From IMG/VR virus record IMGVR_UViG_2609460354_000008, positions 1 to 28,488 of that record: DNA of 28,488 nucleotides; one strand, 5' to 3'. The stretch's first letter is position 1, and every line of letters begins with the position of its first letter. The notes under the pieces were generated by a model. It had not been told where the DNA came from and searched no databases. It was given only the letters and a program-made list of their open reading frames with translations. Below are positions 1,503 to 28,488 of the stretch, in pieces. This DNA is from a virus. Lineage: Duplodnaviria; Heunggongvirae; Uroviricota; Caudoviricetes. A program made the position numbers and the translations under genes.

Positions 1503-1942
1503 CGGCAAAACGGAATGTGGGCAACGGGGAAAACCAAATCCCTGATATGTCTTTCTGGACGGTTACTGGTGGCAATGGAAATTTTGTGATTCGTCAACCT
1601 GACGGGCTAATCACTCAGATGGTTACTGTAAGTATAAGCGGTCCAGTGGCGATGAATGGAATGACTGATAATGCTTATGCCATTACAGGTTCTAATAAGT
1701 CTTATATTGCCACAGCCACATTGCCCTTTGTATTTCCTAATAAGGTGCTGGGCGTTATCCCTCTGGTATCAACAACAGCCTATGGTGGTGTATCCAGTAA
1801 TATTACAGGTTCATACGCGACGGCGGTTTGTTCTTTTGCCGCTGTCCGGGGGAATAATACGATTGTATTCAAAGTCGACAAACCACTGAATGCAGCCTTT
1901 CCTTCAGATACCAGCGTCTCAGCGTTAATCATTGGACGGTAA
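1503..1942 (+). CDS. Alternative tail-fibre C-terminal variable segment, silent in this orientation (would fuse to the constant N-terminus after inversion)
   Basis: Plus-strand ORF inside the invertible segment; its NVGLGE matches NLGLGE at the crossover in the expressed fibre; followed by its own tail-fibre assembly gene. Confidence 0.55.
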
Positions 1943-1944
1943 TA

Positions 1945-2388
1945 ATGAACTCAGTATTCTTTTCACCCGGAAGTAAAAGTTTTTATCTACAAGAATTGTT
2001 TCCAGAATATGAGGATGCGGGAACGCTTCCAGATGATGTTATTGAAATTACCCGAGAAACATATGAGAAATTTCTTGGGCTGCATCCAGAAGGGAAAGAA
2101 ATTGGCGCTGACAGTTCAGGACGGCCAATATGGATTAATTCCCCACCGCCTTCAAAAGAGGATGAGGTGTTGATGGCTGAAATGAAAAAAATATCTTTGG
2201 TTTCAGAAGCCAATACTTACATCAATACCCATCAGTGGCCTGGCAAAGCTGCTATTGGTCGTCTGAAAGGTAACGAGCTGGAGCAATATAATTTATGGCT
2301 GGATTATCTGGACGCACTGGAACTGGTTGATCCCTCCAGTGCTCCAGATATTGAATGGCCTACGCCTCCGGCAGTTCAGGCCAGATGA
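1945..2388 (+). CDS. Tail fibre assembly protein (alternative copy, inside the invertible segment)
   Basis: 147 aa; C-terminus ...LWLDYLDALELVDPSSAPDIEWPTPP is Tfa-like and parallels the C-terminus of the convergent copy (AVLDYIDAVTATDTSTAPNVIWPELPEA). Confidence 0.7.
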   Translation: MNSVFFSPGSKSFYLQELFPEYEDAGTLPDDVIEITRETYEKFLGLHPEGKEIGADSSGRPIWINSPPPSKEDEVLMAEMKKISLVSEANTYINTHQWPGKAAIGRLKGNELEQYNLWLDYLDALELVDPSSAPDIEWPTPPAVQAR

Positions 2389-2962
2389 CATTCGGCGCGG
2401 TGCTGGTATCTGTTGCCGTCACCGCGTCAATATAATCCAGCACAGCGTTAAGTCTGGTGTTTTCTGGCTGCGTCAGCTTCCGCCCGGCCTGTAATTTCAG
2501 TTGAATCAGACTGATGGAAGCCATTGCAGCATCAATCAGCGACTGGCGCTGTGCTTCTGCCGCTTCTACTGCGGCGCTATGCTGTGCCTCGGTATCCGTC
2601 ACCCATTTCTCACCATCCCATTTATCGTATGGCGTTAACGGGGCGATAGTGGTTGTATTTTCAGGGTAATCACCCGGAGCTGTGATTTCTTTTGATTCTC
2701 CTGTTTCAGTGCTATAGACCGTTTCACCGCGATGGTCTGGCACATATTCCCATGAGTTAAAATCTGCAGAACGGCAAATTGCATAACCAGCTTTATATGA
2801 GCCAGGAGCATCTAAACAGGAACATGCCGGGATACCGACACCCACAGCAAGATATTCAGTTGATGTGGAAATATATTCTCGTGTTTCACAATCATAGTTA
2901 TAAACGGTAATATTCCCTGCCGCAGTAGCAATCAATTCACTATTTAATTCTGCATTATTCAT
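2360..2962 (-). CDS. Tail fibre assembly protein (copy in the expressed orientation)
   Basis: 200 aa immediately downstream of, and start/stop-overlapping, the tail fibre gene; Tfa-like C-terminus. Confidence 0.75.
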   Translation of the reverse strand: MNNAELNSELIATAAGNITVYNYDCETREYISTSTEYLAVGVGIPACSCLDAPGSYKAGYAICRSADFNSWEYVPDHRGETVYSTETGESKEITAPGDYPENTTTIAPLTPYDKWDGEKWVTDTEAQHSAAVEAAEAQRQSLIDAAMASISLIQLKLQAGRKLTQPENTRLNAVLDYIDAVTATDTSTAPNVIWPELPEA

Positions 2963-3717
2963 TATGCGGCCCTCACGATATAGTTAAATGCAATATTACG
3001 CGGACGAAGTTCTGGTGATACCGGAGTCGAACCGCTGACATTAAACGTGTAATCAAACACGGAACCTGATCCAGATGAAGTAGATAAAGTTTCAGCATTT
3101 TTACTTTTTGCTACAGAAACACCACCTAAACCATTTGTTTGTTTAACAGCAAAAAGACCATTAAACGTTCCTGAAATAGACGGCATACCATGAGATTGCG
3201 CAGTGAGAATCCCCCTGCCACTATCAACGCCTCTTCCATCATCCCAGCCACGCATAAACTCACCACGTAAATCAGGCAATTTATTTGTCGGGTAAGCCTT
3301 TGCCAGTTCTGGGTATTCTTCAGCAGAAAAAGCCGCACCATTGCATTTCAGCCAGCCTGTTGGCGGAGTGGCTGCAGGCCACGGAACAGGCACACCAACG
3401 GGTAACGCCGAACCTTCTCCCAAACCAAGGTTTTCGAGAGCCGTTTTCACCGTGCCGTCCGATTTGATATCGCCAAACGGATTTTTGCGGCTTAACAGCA
3501 GCGCACGAAGCGCGGTAAGCAACTGGTCGTGCCGCCCTTTCTCCAGGCTGGCACCGGAGGCCTCCACAACGCTGCAAAGCTCCTCCTGCAACATGTCAAA
3601 GTAGTCATTATCCAGATCGGTGGCAGGTGTGCCGGTCTGGGGGTTACCACGGGTAAAACCGTTCTTACCCGCGCCGAACTTATCCTTCTGCGCGGTTTTC
3701 GTGTCTATACGATGCAT
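2962..3717 (-). CDS. Tail fibre protein with tail-collar domain; constant N-terminal part (about aa 1-96) outside the invertible segment, variable C-terminal part inside
   Basis: 251 aa; [20 protein letters not shown]...[14 protein letters not shown] matches the phage tail-collar domain; the crossover site lies inside the ORF. Confidence 0.8.
3414..3433. repeat. Right crossover site of the invertible segment (inverted copy of 1483-1502); plus strand reads CCAAACCAAGGTTTTCG around an AA centre, hix/gix-like
   Basis: Reverse complement GAAAACCTTGGTTTGGGAGAAG shares the 15-nt core with the left site. Confidence 0.6.
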
Positions 3718-23089: not shown

Positions 23090-23370
23090 TTCGCTTCCTT
23101 AGCAGTCCGATAAGTACTGTCTGCTCATCCAACCTAACGAATGTAGATCAGAATGACAAGTCTTTCGCGCTAATTTCAATTTGATATCTGTTCGTAAACA
23201 TGATGGCGCGAAATATTACGCATGAAGTGCTTCTACATCAACATAAAAGTTACTTTTTTTGTGTTCACAGCATGTAAAGTAAAAGCCCCGCACGATGGCG
23301 AGGCTGTTAATTCTTTGTCGACCAACAAAGCTATGGCGACGATATCAGATTTACATGAAATATAAGCGTT

Positions 23371-24060
23371 TCAGTTCGGTTTTGCAAGACTTACGTGCGA
23401 ACTTGTCGCCTTTTGTTGTGAACGTGATCGCGTTACTGAGATAAGCGCACCGCTATCGAGTCGCATAAAGCAGCTACGCATTGCCAACCAGTGAGGCAGG
23501 TATGTCTCTGTCCAGGTGGATTTCGCCACGCCAACCAGTTCCGCCAGCTTCTGGTATTCGTAGGCATCTTTCCCGACCAACCCTGCTTTGACATCCTGCG
23601 CTGCCAGCCATATCAGCTTCTTCAGGCGCTCCATGGTCTTGCCTGCCACCCTCTTCGCGCCGAGATACCCCCTGAATTCAGACCACGCCCACTGGGTGAT
23701 CGCCACCTGGTATTCAAAGCTGACGTTTTCACTGTAACTCCACAGCAACCACGCTTTCTGATGTTCTTCGAGAGACAGAACCGCGCGGCGCCATGAAGAT
23801 GTTGAGAACTCAACCTGGCTGACCAGTGCAATGGATGAACCTTTTGCGTACGACTGCTTACCGGAAATCGGCGGATTATCCAGCGTAATCATCTTGCCCG
23901 TTACCTCATCCAGAATGCGCGGCTTCTTTCGTTTATATGTACCAGTATCAAATTGTGCATGCTCCAGCCAGGCTTCAAGCTGGCCTTTCGTTGCTCCGCT
24001 CAAATCAGCAGTAGCCACAATGAGTTGCTCGCGGACATACTGTAAATATTGGGTATTCAT
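23371..24060 (-). CDS. Putative late-gene antiterminator Q (long Q-type); assignment by position
   Basis: 229 aa; translationally coupled to ylcG (ATGA overlap), downstream of rusA and upstream of the lysis cassette. Confidence 0.45.
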   Translation of the reverse strand: MNTQYLQYVREQLIVATADLSGATKGQLEAWLEHAQFDTGTYKRKKPRILDEVTGKMITLDNPPISGKQSYAKGSSIALVSQVEFSTSSWRRAVLSLEEHQKAWLLWSYSENVSFEYQVAITQWAWSEFRGYLGAKRVAGKTMERLKKLIWLAAQDVKAGLVGKDAYEYQKLAELVGVAKSTWTETYLPHWLAMRSCFMRLDSGALISVTRSRSQQKATSSHVSLAKPN

Positions 24061-24843: not shown

Positions 24844-25006
24844 GATTCCTCCTTGCTGCCAGTCGCAACCATTTTTTATCAACCAGGCTAGCGGTATATC
24901 CGAGCAGTGTTGGTATTTCGGATGGCTTCAGCTCAGGCTTACGCTTACGACGATTTGGTACTCTGTAGATGTGTCCGTTCATGACACGAATAAGCGGTGT
25001 AGCCAT
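24836..25006 (-). CDS. ninE: NinE-like protein (56 aa), not in the ORF track
   Basis: [56 protein letters not shown]; ATG overlaps the NinB stop (TAATG) and stop overlaps the ybcO start. Confidence 0.6.
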   Translation of the reverse strand: MATPLIRVMNGHIYRVPNRRKRKPELKPSEIPTLLGYTASLVDKKWLRLAARRNHG

Positions 25007-25461
25007 TACGCCTCCTGCTTGTCGCGCAGCAGCTGGAACTCGCAGCTCTGCGGAATAGTCAGGTGGCAGCCAATATTCATCGCCCAGGCTTCAACCTTAC
25101 ACAGGAAGACATACATCTCTCCGGTATCAAGATCGGAAGTATGGCGTAACGACTGGATAGTAGTGATTTCGCCGGTTACGACATCAACCAGGTCCTTGGT
25201 TTCATAACCGAGGTATGTGTGTTTGAGAGCATCTTTTACCCATGCTGCGGTAGCGAACGATTTCCCCCTGCTGACGAGGTATTCACTGATTTCGCTGTAC
25301 CACATGTGGCTGAGTGCATTCTGGGAAAGACTGCGTTTCTCACGCCACGGTTTAAGCACCATGCGAAAGCATTTTCCGTCCTCCAGATAAGGCTGGATCT
25401 GCTGGCCGATAGCGATGAAGTTGCCGCGATGCAATTTGATACCATCTTGTGGGAGGTTCAC
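25006..25461 (-). CDS. ninB: NinB-family recombination protein (YbcN-like); GTG start with GGAGG RBS
   Basis: 151 aa; matches the DLP12 YbcN/NinB sequence as recalled; first gene of the nin cluster. Confidence 0.8.
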
Positions 25462-25682: not shown

Positions 25683-26084
25683 TTATTTTAACTCATAGAT
25701 CAGACAGTCAACGATTTCTAAACCATTTACCATAGAATTAGAAACCCGAACTTTACCATCGTTGACTCTAGCAAATCCTTTTAACATTTTATAAACAAAA
25801 GCTGAATCCCCCTTAGCCTCAATTGCTTCTAATGGTATCGGCTTATACTTTTTTGATATGCTATTTCTATTTATCTCACTGATTTTTCTATATATTTCTG
25901 CCGGTCCACGTTCTGAGAAGTCACTGATAACTAAAATATATCTCCAAGATAGATCTGGGTAATAAAACCACATTGCAGCATCAATAGTTAAATTCTGTAA
26001 CTTGAGTTTTTTTAACAAAAATTGACCTGAGAATTCCATATCTTTTGTCAACTCTCTGCCGATTACCAGTGTGCTTTTACCCAT
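25683..26084 (-). CDS. Unknown 133-aa protein, downstream partner of the HEPN gene (overlaps it by 22 nt); no recognisable nucleotidyltransferase motif
   Basis: GGAG RBS about 8 nt upstream of the ATG, inside the HEPN gene 3' end; low-GC island. Confidence 0.55.
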   Translation of the reverse strand: MGKSTLVIGRELTKDMEFSGQFLLKKLKLQNLTIDAAMWFYYPDLSWRYILVISDFSERGPAEIYRKISEINRNSISKKYKPIPLEAIEAKGDSAFVYKMLKGFARVNDGKVRVSNSMVNGLEIVDCLIYELK

Positions 26085-26479
26085 TTCAAAACTCCAGAAT
26101 TTTGGTCACCTACAGCATCAAACAATTGTTCGGCCATAGCTTTACTTATGTTATTGTCGTATCTAAATTGCTCGCTCCAGTCTTTAACGACCGACCAGTT
26201 AATCTCCAACGAAACATCATTTTTTGCGTCAGCAATCAAAATTTGATGTAAGTTGGCAATTTTGAGAAGTTGCGACAAATCATGAGTATATGAATCATTT
26301 ACGACTTTTTTGTTTGGAAACTCATGTTGTAAAAATGACTTGGCAATACAGGCCTTCAATGCACATTCAACTGCATACCCACAAAGATAATATGCACCAT
26401 GAAAAAAGCCATGATCAAGCAAGCATTTGGCCTCATTAAGCCTAGTGTCAGATAATGCTTCAAGGTCGTTTTTATTCAT
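26063..26479 (-). CDS. HEPN-domain protein (138 aa), first gene of a two-gene AT-rich module
   Basis: HEPN hallmarks read by eye: helix GFFHGAYYLCGYAVECALKACIAK, THDLSQLL, and C-terminal EQFRYDN; canonical Rx4-6H not evident. Confidence 0.55.
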   Translation of the reverse strand: MNKNDLEALSDTRLNEAKCLLDHGFFHGAYYLCGYAVECALKACIAKSFLQHEFPNKKVVNDSYTHDLSQLLKIANLHQILIADAKNDVSLEINWSVVKDWSEQFRYDNNISKAMAEQLFDAVGDQNSGVLKWVKAHW

Positions 26480-26778
26480 ACAATTATAACTTGAATTATG
26501 CTAATTTTTATGATCATACCCTTATCAGGTATGATGTAGGAACTGAAAACAATATTGGATATCATTTTCGGTATTTCTCTGCAAATTCCAGCCCACCGGA
26601 TCTCGGTGTACAATCTGTCGCTGTTCGCGCAAATTTAGGGTCAATCACTTCATTTTTTGCATCAAACCCTCACTAACATCGAGCGATTATTGTGCAAGTA
26701 GTGTTCTTGACTTCTCATTAAACCGTCAGCATTCAATTAATTACAAAATACTAGCGGCATTTCTCTCCCGCAACTTTA

Positions 26779-27444
26779 TTACAGCCGTTCAGAACGTAAA
26801 TGCGTCAATACTCGACTCCACTTATCATCCTGCCACGGCCGGAATTTTACATGTGCCGTTTCTCTGGCAAGGATTTCGCGCGCCTTATGTAGTATCTGGG
26901 GATATTCTTGCTCGATGGAAGCAAAGCGACCGGCTTCGCGGTGCTCCGCAACCTGAAGAAGTAGAGTAACATTCTGGCAGGCGGTTAACATCACATCCCC
27001 TGCTCGCCATAACCAAGCAAGTGTGCAAAGTTCGTTATCAGTGAATTGTTTTATGATTGGGGATTGTTGAACTTCTCGATCGAGAATATCCAGAACCCAA
27101 CGGCGGAACTCTTTGGCTACAGGAGTGCGGGCGAACATGGCGATCAAATGGGCTCCGCGGAGAGAGAAAACGCGTACTTTCTTCTTCAAGTTTCGAGTAC
27201 TTTTCGAGGTACTCAGATCAAGTACCTCGACATCATTCTCTGAGGTACTGACTTCAAGCACTCTAGTCATACTACTGGAAAATTCGTCAGCATATTTGTT
27301 GTAAATCATCGTGACTGCGCGACTATTCGAATACTTCAGTGCTCTTGCTAGGTTGGATGAAGTTAGCCATATTCCGGCAATATTTGCCACTGGCACTAGT
27401 GCTTCACCTTGGAAGTTCAGATCTGATGTTGCTACAATACTCAT
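26779..27444 (-). CDS. Bro-N domain antirepressor-like protein (start set at Met28, AAGGAA RBS; alternative start at 27525)
   Basis: N-terminal Bro-N-like pattern (LNFQGEALVPVANIAGIW...FSLRGAHLIAMFARTPVAKEFRRWVLDILDREV); downstream of the Arc-like gene. Confidence 0.55.
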   Translation of the reverse strand: MSIVATSDLNFQGEALVPVANIAGIWLTSSNLARALKYSNSRAVTMIYNKYADEFSSSMTRVLEVSTSENDVEVLDLSTSKSTRNLKKKVRVFSLRGAHLIAMFARTPVAKEFRRWVLDILDREVQQSPIIKQFTDNELCTLAWLWRAGDVMLTACQNVTLLLQVAEHREAGRFASIEQEYPQILHKAREILARETAHVKFRPWQDDKWSRVLTHLRSERL

Positions 27445-27514
27445 GTCGATATTTCCTTCGCGGTTATTTTCGATAGAAGCCCCTAAGGTTGCCGCCAGTG
27501 GGGCTTCGCTGTTT

Positions 27515-27673
27515 CTAGCGAGCATGTATCCGTGCTCTAAATTTCAATGCCCATACAAGCGCCTGAACAATAGCTGCGTTCTCAGACATCCCTTCCTCCT
27601 GAGCAATTCGCTTGAATTCATCCTTCACTTTTTGCGGATAGCGAAGGGTAATTTTTACCTCTTTCTTTTCCAT
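27515..27673 (-). CDS. Arc-like ribbon-helix-helix repressor (52 aa)
   Basis: MEKKEVKITLRYPQKVKDEFKRIAQEEGMSENAAIVQALVWAL has the RHH beta-strand/helix pattern; GAGG RBS; divergent from the Mnt-like gene. Confidence 0.55.
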   Translation of the reverse strand: MEKKEVKITLRYPQKVKDEFKRIAQEEGMSENAAIVQALVWALKFRARIHAR

Positions 27674-27772
27674 TGACATAACCTCATGAGGCCACAATGA
27701 CACCATGAGGCCATAATGCCACCATTGAATTGATGTGGCAATATGGCACCATTCATTTTTTTGGGGGTTCCA

Positions 27773-28090
27773 ATGGCTGACAAACAAGTAAAAGACTACG
27801 ATAAGTTTAACCTCCGTTTCCCTGATGGGATGCGTGAAGCTATAGCTGAACGAGCCAAACGAAACGGGCGCTCAATGAATTCAGAAATCATTCAAATACT
27901 CCAAGATGCCATAGAAGGAAGTTCTGAACTATCTAAACGTTTAAATTTAGTTGGGTTTATTCGAGGTGACAGAGAGATACGTGACCTGGAAGATAATGCA
28001 AGCAAACTTGCGTTGTATATCGATCATAGAACACAAGAGTTTAAACAAATTTTATTGGAAGATTTAAAATTACTCCTTAATCATGATTAA
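27773..28090 (+). CDS. Mnt/Arc-family ribbon-helix-helix repressor (Mnt-like, 105 aa)
   Basis: FNLRFPDGMREAIAERAKRNGRSMNSEIIQILQDAI aligns with P22 Mnt (FNFRMP...ANGRSMNSELLQIVQDAL) and Arc; GGGGG RBS before the ATG. Confidence 0.7.
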   Translation: MADKQVKDYDKFNLRFPDGMREAIAERAKRNGRSMNSEIIQILQDAIEGSSELSKRLNLVGFIRGDREIRDLEDNASKLALYIDHRTQEFKQILLEDLKLLLNHD

Positions 28091-28134: not shown

Positions 28135-28488
28135 ATGCGTATTAAAATCATGCCTCTCCCAAGTACTATCCAAATGGGCCAAAAAAAACGGACAACAAGT
28201 GCAGCAGTATCCACAACGTTTTTTGGCCCAAATGGTCTTAAACCACAAGGAGATAGCCTTGAAAATACAGCAAAGAAAAACTCTTCAATTTTGCGAGAAA
28301 AAAACTACAGAAAAATTGCTGAAACACTATATAAAACTGGGGTCATAACTATGGCAACATTTGATAGAGAATGTAATTTAGGAGGTAAAGACAGAAAGTA
28401 CTTGCGACATATTTTTTCCCTACTTTTGTCAGAAAAAATCAAATCAAAACAAATCAGAATAACCCGCAAGAAAAAACAGAAGAAATAA
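28135..28488 (+). CDS. Hypothetical protein with Lys-rich basic C-terminus (117 aa), low-GC; stop is the last codon of the window
   Basis: ATG preceded by a GAGGAG RBS about 8 nt upstream; no family recognised. Confidence 0.4.
   Translation: MRIKIMPLPSTIQMGQKKRTTSAAVSTTFFGPNGLKPQGDSLENTAKKNSSILREKNYRKIAETLYKTGVITMATFDRECNLGGKDRKYLRHIFSLLLSEKIKSKQIRITRKKKQKK

Follow-up and report, generated by a model that had tools for sequence, protein, structure and literature searches.

Between positions 26,779 and 28,090 of the Caudoviricetes virus record IMGVR_UViG_2609460354_000008, whose 28,488 nucleotides (nt) are called the window throughout, lies a module that is probably a homologue of the immI region of phage P22, an 'ant moron' that a lambdoid Escherichia coli prophage carries between its replication genes and ninB and in which repressors and an antisense RNA would keep an antirepressor in check. 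The probability of this reading, including the proposed working, is put at about 0.75. The immI region and the 'ant moron' of P22-like phages have been described, and the working of P22 immI, in which Mnt holds the promoter Pant off, Arc provides shut-down, the RNA sar imposes a block and Ant inactivates the repressor, is established (PMC2629481 and references therein). The parts of the module are as follows, Ant denoting the antirepressor-like protein:

27773–28090, plus strand: Mnt-like repressor gene, 105 aa, with an N-terminal ribbon-helix-helix (RHH) domain and a C-terminal tail of ~55 aa
27674–27772, 99 bp: divergent control region with three related ~18-bp units and a Pant-like promoter
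27515–27673, minus strand: Arc-like repressor gene, 52-aa RHH protein, first in the arc-ant operon
27446–27510, plus strand: putative sar-like antisense RNA, matching Rfam RF00262, with two hairpins
27409–27438, plus strand: Psar-like promoter predicted by promoter scan, within the first 12 ant codons
26779–27444, minus strand: antirepressor-like gene in its short form, 221 aa, with Bro-N at ~27085–27372 and P22_AR_C at ~26845–27051
27445–27525, minus strand: possible 27-codon N-terminal extension of Ant, coinciding with the sar target

An earlier note, made from the letters of this DNA without database searches, had proposed such an mnt / arc-ant switch, and all three open reading frames (ORFs) are found where it placed them (Mnt-like at 27773–28090 on the plus strand, Arc-like at 27515–27673 and the Bro-N gene ending at 26779 on the minus strand). 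Its call of a Mnt/Arc-family RHH gene agrees with profile and structure-database searches, in which the Mnt-like protein, whose gene is preceded by GGGGG at 27763–27767, matches the Pfam family Arc with E 5e-20 and finds P22 Mnt (1mnt) as its top match among the solved structures of the PDB with E 1.7e-8. Compared directly with P22 Mnt, it is 47% identical over 49 residues of the RHH domain (E 1e-14). The tail is unrelated to the Repressor_Mnt segment of P22 Mnt. A single-sequence AlphaFold model of the protein with a mean predicted local distance difference test score (pLDDT) of 50 draws a long helix at residues 68–102, which was taken as a weak hint of a C-terminal helix, and on this model it is possible that the tail plays a role analogous to the tetramerisation segment of Mnt. 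The gene for the second RHH protein carries GAGG 8 nt upstream, and its product is Arc-like as claimed, reaching 22.6 bits against the Pfam Arc cut-off of 20.4 (E 9.5e-5) and having P22 Arc and Arc variants as its significant PDB matches (E 8.5e-5 to 5e-4, residues 6–50); its identity to P22 Arc is 36% (E 2e-9). In the P22 record mnt (14519–14770) is named 'partition protein ATPase', as are PHROGs 795 and 2685, which the Mnt-like protein matches. On P22 mnt, which encodes an 83-aa RHH repressor, the label 'partition protein' is a propagated mis-annotation.

The third protein, Ant, scores above the Pfam cut-offs for both Bro-N (PF02498; E 5.8e-9, 36.9 bits versus 25.6) and P22_AR_C (PF10548; E 2.8e-14, 53.4 bits versus 22.4). 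The Bro-N antirepressor-like character given to it by the earlier note is thus upheld, and the statement that its C-terminal domain is not recognisable has to be withdrawn. For the short form of 221 aa the corresponding values are E 4.5e-9 (Bro-N) and E 1.8e-14 (P22_AR_C). Moreover, Ant matches PHROG 245, 'anti-repressor Ant', with E 3e-60. An AlphaFold model built with 31 sequences is confident for the N-domain (pLDDT 84–93 over most of it), and the top matches of this model in BFVD, a collection of predicted viral structures, are antirepressor, KilA-N and baculovirus Bro proteins (best E 1.6e-7). A PADLOC search gave no match for Ant. P22 Ant consists of P22_AR_N (PF10547) and P22_AR_C, and the C-terminal regions of the two Ant proteins align with E 0.005. 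Among relatives of the module all 79 distinct Ant proteins carry Bro-N and 57 of them P22_AR_C as well. Members of the Bro network swap domains freely, and the combination of Bro-N with P22_AR_C is among the recognised swaps (PMC10111431); to judge from the domain content, the exchange of P22_AR_N for Bro-N appears typical of this network. Most members of the network (Bro-N, KilA-N, P22_AR_N, P22_AR_C, ANT, AntA, Rha) have no link to an Arc/Mnt/sar cassette. Escherichia phage PhiR26_1 encodes an Ant homologue (2498–3106) that is 65% identical over residues 33–248, has a different 5' end, adjoins a gene annotated PD-lambda-1 and is found without an arc gene and without a sar-like junction, indicating that the same Ant body can sit under different control.

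For the gap between arc and ant the earlier note had offered a sar-like antisense RNA as a speculation, which gains considerably from a full-length Rfam match, a promoter-like site at the position of Psar, covariation and a strand asymmetry of folding. The Rfam family sar (RF00262) matches the plus strand at 27446–27510 over model positions 1–68 of 68 with 34 bits and E 1.7e-4 in a search of 2.1 kb. The match starts 1 nt from the ATG at 27444 and stops 4 nt short of the arc stop, and in the P22 record sar begins at the base adjoining the ant ATG and extends back as far as the arc stop, with its promoter inside the first ant codons. Hairpin I exposes the loop UUUCCUU, complementary to the Shine-Dalgarno (SD) sequence of ant, and the GC-rich hairpin II, which corresponds to the terminator hairpin of sar, has the base GAAGCCCC/GGGGCUUC, as in P22, and is followed by GCUGUUUCU; in its upper part three positions of the window RNA do not pair. 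The predicted fold (minimum free energy −24.6 kcal/mol, z −2.45) contains both hairpins. The window RNA thus resembles the Rfam family in both hairpins, in the anti-SD sequence of loop I and in strand and position relative to arc and ant. An independent promoter scan finds on the plus strand at 27409–27438 a −35 element TTGGAA, an 18-nt spacer and a TG-extended −10 element TACAAT, from which transcription is predicted to start at ~27445–27446. This −10 element lies at ant codons 3–4, the position of the annotated −10 of P22 Psar, and the hexamer TAnnnT is kept in all 63 variants of the ant 5' end; the codon pair that it encodes varies (IV, SV, SL, SI). From these features of the sequence we infer that the sar-like RNA is probably transcribed.

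Conservation of this element can be followed through relatives, since a search with the junction motif AGGAAATATCGACATGA led to 119 viral contigs and from these to ~70 distinct arc-ant junctions. The arc-ant interval is near-identical despite strong divergence of the arc and ant coding sequences, for example between the window and Klebsiella phages, and the two-hairpin shape is predicted in the inspected junction variants by one-sequence folding. In 74 of 75 sequences the folding energy favours the antisense over the sense strand (means −29.9 and −20.5 kcal/mol), because many G-U pairs of the stems are C-A mismatches on the sense strand. Covariation was counted in 38 variants of equal length, aligned by MAFFT without gaps and without fitting to a structure: 95.9% of the cells pair, as compared with at most 61.5% when the partners are slid, and none of 500 shuffles reached the covariation score. 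Helix 2 is paired to 99.5%, and three of its ten pairs change on both sides, such as pair 41–59 with AU in 21, UG in 8, UA in 6 and CG in 3 variants. A MAFFT alignment of all 75 antisense sequences was dropped for pair counting, as variants of different length had the 5' arm of hairpin II wrongly aligned in it. One hexamer in loop I, just 5' of the ant SD sequence at 27459–27464, occurs in 26 versions among 64 junction variants (equivalent position in loci L009–L127), the near-invariance of its flanks being owed partly to the search motif, which fixes one of them. This could be neutral loop variation or a determinant of antisense-RNA specificity.

The divergent control region contains three related units of the form ATGGTGNCAT..TG(G/C)CC, A at 27735–27752, B at 27707–27725 and C at 27688–27706. 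B and C stand in tandem 19 bp apart, and A also forms an inverted repeat with B. These units differ in sequence from the operators of P22 immI, the dyads Oarc and Omnt. The three units overlap a Pant-like promoter on the minus strand, predicted with 9 of 12 consensus matches, whose −35 element TTGCCA (27741–27736) lies within A and whose TG-extended −10 element CATTAT (27718–27713), after a 17-nt spacer, lies within B. Its −35 element ends 62 nt upstream of the arc ATG, which is the distance of P22 Pant (TTGACA-17-TATATT) and the most frequent distance in related loci. The centre of the A/B dyad falls within the promoter spacer, the place of Oarc in P22. In the Shiga toxin (Stx) 2a phage WGPS8, which has the same Mnt head and another Arc type, A and B are almost unchanged and C has diverged, and this co-conservation with the Mnt head in Stx phages suggests that A and B may be Mnt sites. 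Modules of the type found in Salmonella phage SPN3UB have the same heads and different repeats. An attempt to assign A, B and C to the Mnt-like or the Arc-like protein by correlation across loci was given up, as the signals conflict.

Taken as a whole, the module agrees with the annotated P22 record in gene order, orientation, protein families, promoter-like position and antisense RNA, so that the match to the mnt / arc-ant organisation suggested in the earlier note stands. Both have divergent mnt and arc-ant genes, separated by a control gap of 99 bp here and 90 bp in P22, and RHH homologues of Arc and Mnt; both have a two-hairpin cis-antisense RNA (here putative) reaching from beside the ant ATG to the arc stop, with its promoter in ant codons 3–12 (here predicted), and both behave like morons with mosaic boundaries. 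They differ in location, P22 immI lying between tail genes and the module here in the ren-ninB gap of a lambda-like phage, and in the Ant frame, which is closed across the sar target in P22 and open here up to a start overlapping the arc stop. Among 97 related loci, 83 have, upstream of the conserved junction, an Arc-like gene together with a divergent Mnt-like gene. The Arc sequences fall into at least eight types, which co-vary with the types of Mnt head, as expected for immunity specificities. Some 3,900 homologues of Ant at E 1e-10 or better come from Escherichia, Klebsiella, Enterobacter, Citrobacter and Raoultella. The same four-part organisation is seen in SPN3UB, in the Klebsiella phage ST512-KPC3phi13.1 and in Stx2a, Stx2c and Stx1a phages of E. 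coli O157. These cassettes carry the junction motif AGGAAATATCGACATG in every case read at the junction and the same or nearly the same Mnt-like head, whereas their Arc types begin MQDTLF... or MDTLYT... instead of MEKKEVKITLRYP, and identity to the window Ant is 43% for SPN3UB and 52% for the Klebsiella phage. Tail genes surround the cassette in Stx phages, SPN3UB and a Klebsiella phage, in contrast to the ren-ninB gap here, and such differing insertion places fit the 'ant moron' concept of P22-like phages. In WGPS8 the homologous Mnt-like/Arc-like/Ant cassette (1811–3406) lies between minor tail and tail assembly genes, and its control region is 85% identical to window positions 27691–27910. 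The cassette is present in ~20 listed records of Stx1a, Stx2a and Stx2c phages, the Stx-converting phages of E. coli O157:H7.

Where does translation of Ant begin, and is the interval between arc and ant in the first place an RNA element? The short form starts at the ATG at 27444, which matches the position of the annotated P22 ant start and is preceded by the SD sequence AAGGA at 27454–27458; 70 nt (27445–27514) separate it from the arc stop. The longest ORF in the Ant frame reaches back to an ATG at 27525, giving 248 aa and an overlap of 11 nt at the arc stop (ATGCTCGCTAG). Of 62 junction variants, 61 have no stop in the Ant frame over at least 24 codons upstream, and 60 have a start at codons −24 to −31 (ATG 46, GTG 11, TTG 3), which overlaps the ends of arc genes that differ widely; the two remaining frames are free of stops in 7 and 28 variants and almost never contain start codons. 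With this distribution the extension does not look like a random open frame. PGAP and other annotators choose the long form, and databases hold versions of 207 aa and of 234–235 aa. It could therefore be imagined that the interval is mainly coding, with Ant made from 27525 by translational coupling and the conservation residing in an N-terminal peptide, a reading that we consider serious, if somewhat short of an even chance. Speaking against it, the encoded peptide changes freely where the top of the hairpin changes (EAPLAATLGAS, EAQKCANTLGLL and EALTTCDSQGSL are examples), the nucleotides remain near-identical between modules whose flanking genes have diverged strongly, G-U pairs and folding energies favour the antisense strand, the homologous interval of P22 has an in-frame TAA 15 codons upstream of the ant start, and four natural variants cannot make a long form at all, L014 by a frameshift, L105 and L054 by an arc stop in frame and L124 by lack of a start. 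The coding and the RNA reading are compatible, as the same stretch can be both sar target and translated. Alternatively, the GC-rich hairpin could do its work in the sense RNA, attenuating or stabilising the transcript between arc and ant, without any antisense RNA. The stem does form on the sense strand (−21.0 kcal/mol, z −2.65), but no U-run follows it there, the stem positions that are G-U on the antisense strand become C-A mismatches, leaving the sense strand less stable in all but one of the 75 sequences, and the conserved −10 element faces the antisense direction at the position of P22 Psar; this explanation is quite improbable. We conclude from the sequence comparison that 27444 is probably a functional start of Ant. 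A coupled start at 27525 would be compatible with it and has an appreciable chance that falls below one half. A fuller version is more tentative still: Ant would be made from the arc-stop-overlapping ATG at 27525 in coupling to Arc translation, a shorter isoform would arise from the internal start at 27444, the sar-like RNA would find its target within coding sequence, and the loop I hexamer would set the trans specificity between the antisense RNAs and ant mRNAs of different phages. If this were true, hexamer specificity would add an RNA layer to immunity specificity.

The function of the proteins has to be weighed in a similar way. The Bro-N protein might be a DNA-binding regulator or another effector of the Bro/KilA-N network that merely came under Arc/Mnt-type control and is no antirepressor. 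Bro-N domains occur in many proteins of differing function and are swapped freely (PMC10111431), the pairwise similarity to P22 Ant is weak at E 0.005, and the papers searched yielded neither experimental work on this Bro-N subfamily nor a member of it with experimental data. P22_AR_C is, however, common to this Ant and P22 Ant, the PHROG families matched by Ant are annotated as anti-repressor, and the control cassette as a whole, down to sar and Psar, has its homologue in that of P22 ant, so that we regard a function other than antirepression as rather unlikely. It is hardly credible that the two RHH genes form a toxin-antitoxin or ParG-like plasmid-partition pair unrelated to the control of ant. 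Although HicB, FitA-like and 'partition protein' PHROGs turn up as weak secondary matches, neither a toxin gene nor a ParA gene adjoins the two genes, their best matches are P22 Mnt and Arc, the partition label is an annotation artefact that also sits on mnt in the P22 record, and the genes are syntenic with ant in the 83 of 97 loci mentioned above.

Several observations nevertheless count against the preferred reading of the module as an immI homologue with the working proposed for it. Pfam Repressor_Mnt (PF11423), the C-terminal tetramerisation segment, finds no match in the Mnt-like protein and scores P22 Mnt with E 1.6e-20, and the tail of the Mnt-like protein is modelled with low confidence (pLDDT ~45). 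In Ant the N-domain is Bro-N instead of the P22_AR_N of P22 Ant, with only the C-terminal P22_AR_C common to both, and confidence in its C-domain model is low; neither the single Ant sequence nor a 79-sequence profile gave a significant match among solved structures, and Foldseek found no PDB match to the Ant model at E 0.001 or better. The gene for the cI-type repressor that Ant would target is not within the window; the relative PSS-11 encodes an S24 peptidase repressor ~3 kb beyond the module. The candidate Pmnt on the plus strand (ATGCCA at 27716–27721 and CAATAT at 27739–27744, 17-nt spacer), which would overlap the Pant-like site face to face, was read by eye, matches the consensus at 7 of 12 positions and falls below the scan threshold. 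The assignment of the repeat units is ambiguous, position pointing to Oarc-like A/B and co-conservation to Mnt sites. Finally, the sar-like match lies below the gathering score of 43 bits, and the whole-window Rfam scan at the gathering threshold does not list sar. The scores of relatives, on the other hand, span this threshold, with 48 bits for SPN3UB, which is above it, 37.6 for the Klebsiella phage, 36.4 for locus L032 and 32.8 for locus L008 (four other loci gave no match at E 0.01 or better), which makes the window RNA a divergent member of a continuous sar family.

How would an immI homologue work in this prophage? The Pant-like promoter would drive arc-like and then ant on the minus strand, and the Mnt-like gene would be expressed from the opposite strand. 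In the lysogen the Mnt-like repressor may bind the repeats overlapping the Pant-like promoter and keep ant off. Once the operon fires, its first product, the Arc-like protein, would feed back to limit transcription. A sar-like RNA of ~65–70 nt, starting at ~27446 and ending after the GC-rich hairpin by the arc stop, could pair with the arc-ant junction including the ribosome-binding site of ant and thereby block synthesis of Ant. The Bro-N and P22_AR_C protein Ant, expected by analogy to inactivate a prophage repressor non-covalently, would bind a cI-type repressor without cleaving it, and its action would lift immunity in its own or in co-resident prophages. Since arc-ant is co-oriented with early rightward transcription from the replication genes, lytic read-through could bypass control by Mnt, and the RNA layer may be more important for that reason.

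The window represents the right arm of the lambdoid E. coli prophage in reverse reading direction, and its minus strand carries NinB (25006–25461), RusA, Q (23371–24060) and lysis, terminase, head and tail genes. Escherichia phage PhiR5_1 and five E. coli chromosomes share the module with 98% identity and carry it between the O/P/ren replication genes and ninB. The earlier note had placed the switch beside the nin region; the two are not directly adjacent, as a two-gene cassette on the minus strand at 25683–26479 separates ant from ninB. It comprises a 138-aa HEPN-domain protein (26063–26479; Pfam HEPN E 3e-6, weak PADLOC match to PDC-M28A with E 1.8e-7) and an overlapping gene for a 133-aa partner (25683–26084) without a Pfam match. 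Both proteins fall into PHROGs without assigned function, and the pair is missing from the closest relatives of the ant module. Homology to PhiR5_1-type relatives begins at ~26773–26786, that is at the end of ant, which marks the HEPN cassette on its left as an insertion of its own; this cassette may be a moron for defence or of the toxin-antitoxin type. A scan for an intrinsic terminator downstream of ant found none. On the other side of the module, downstream of the Mnt-like gene, a 117-aa lysine-rich ORF (28135–28488, plus strand), which stops exactly at the window edge and has no Pfam, PHROG or PADLOC match, occupies the place of P22 orf59a after mnt. Directly downstream of Q, Rfam isrJ (RF01393) matches the minus strand at 23282–23355 with 64.9 bits against a gathering score of 37, and our guess is that this model detects a short late-promoter leader transcript of lambdoid phages.

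These findings leave the textbook picture of immI as it is; the only mild surprises are that an upstream start is conserved across the antisense target and that the sar family continues below the Rfam threshold. The P22 sar family extends well past that threshold, into the Bro-N/P22_AR_C protein family of Enterobacterales with its ~3,900 members. For annotation it follows that 'partition protein' labels on Mnt-like genes are wrong and that pipelines are inconsistent on the start of Ant. With the cassette the prophage would have a second way, under regulation of its own, of relieving repressor-based immunity. Co-resident prophages can be induced by such antirepressors, and as the same cassette is found in Stx-converting phages, its regulation bears on the induction of toxin phages.

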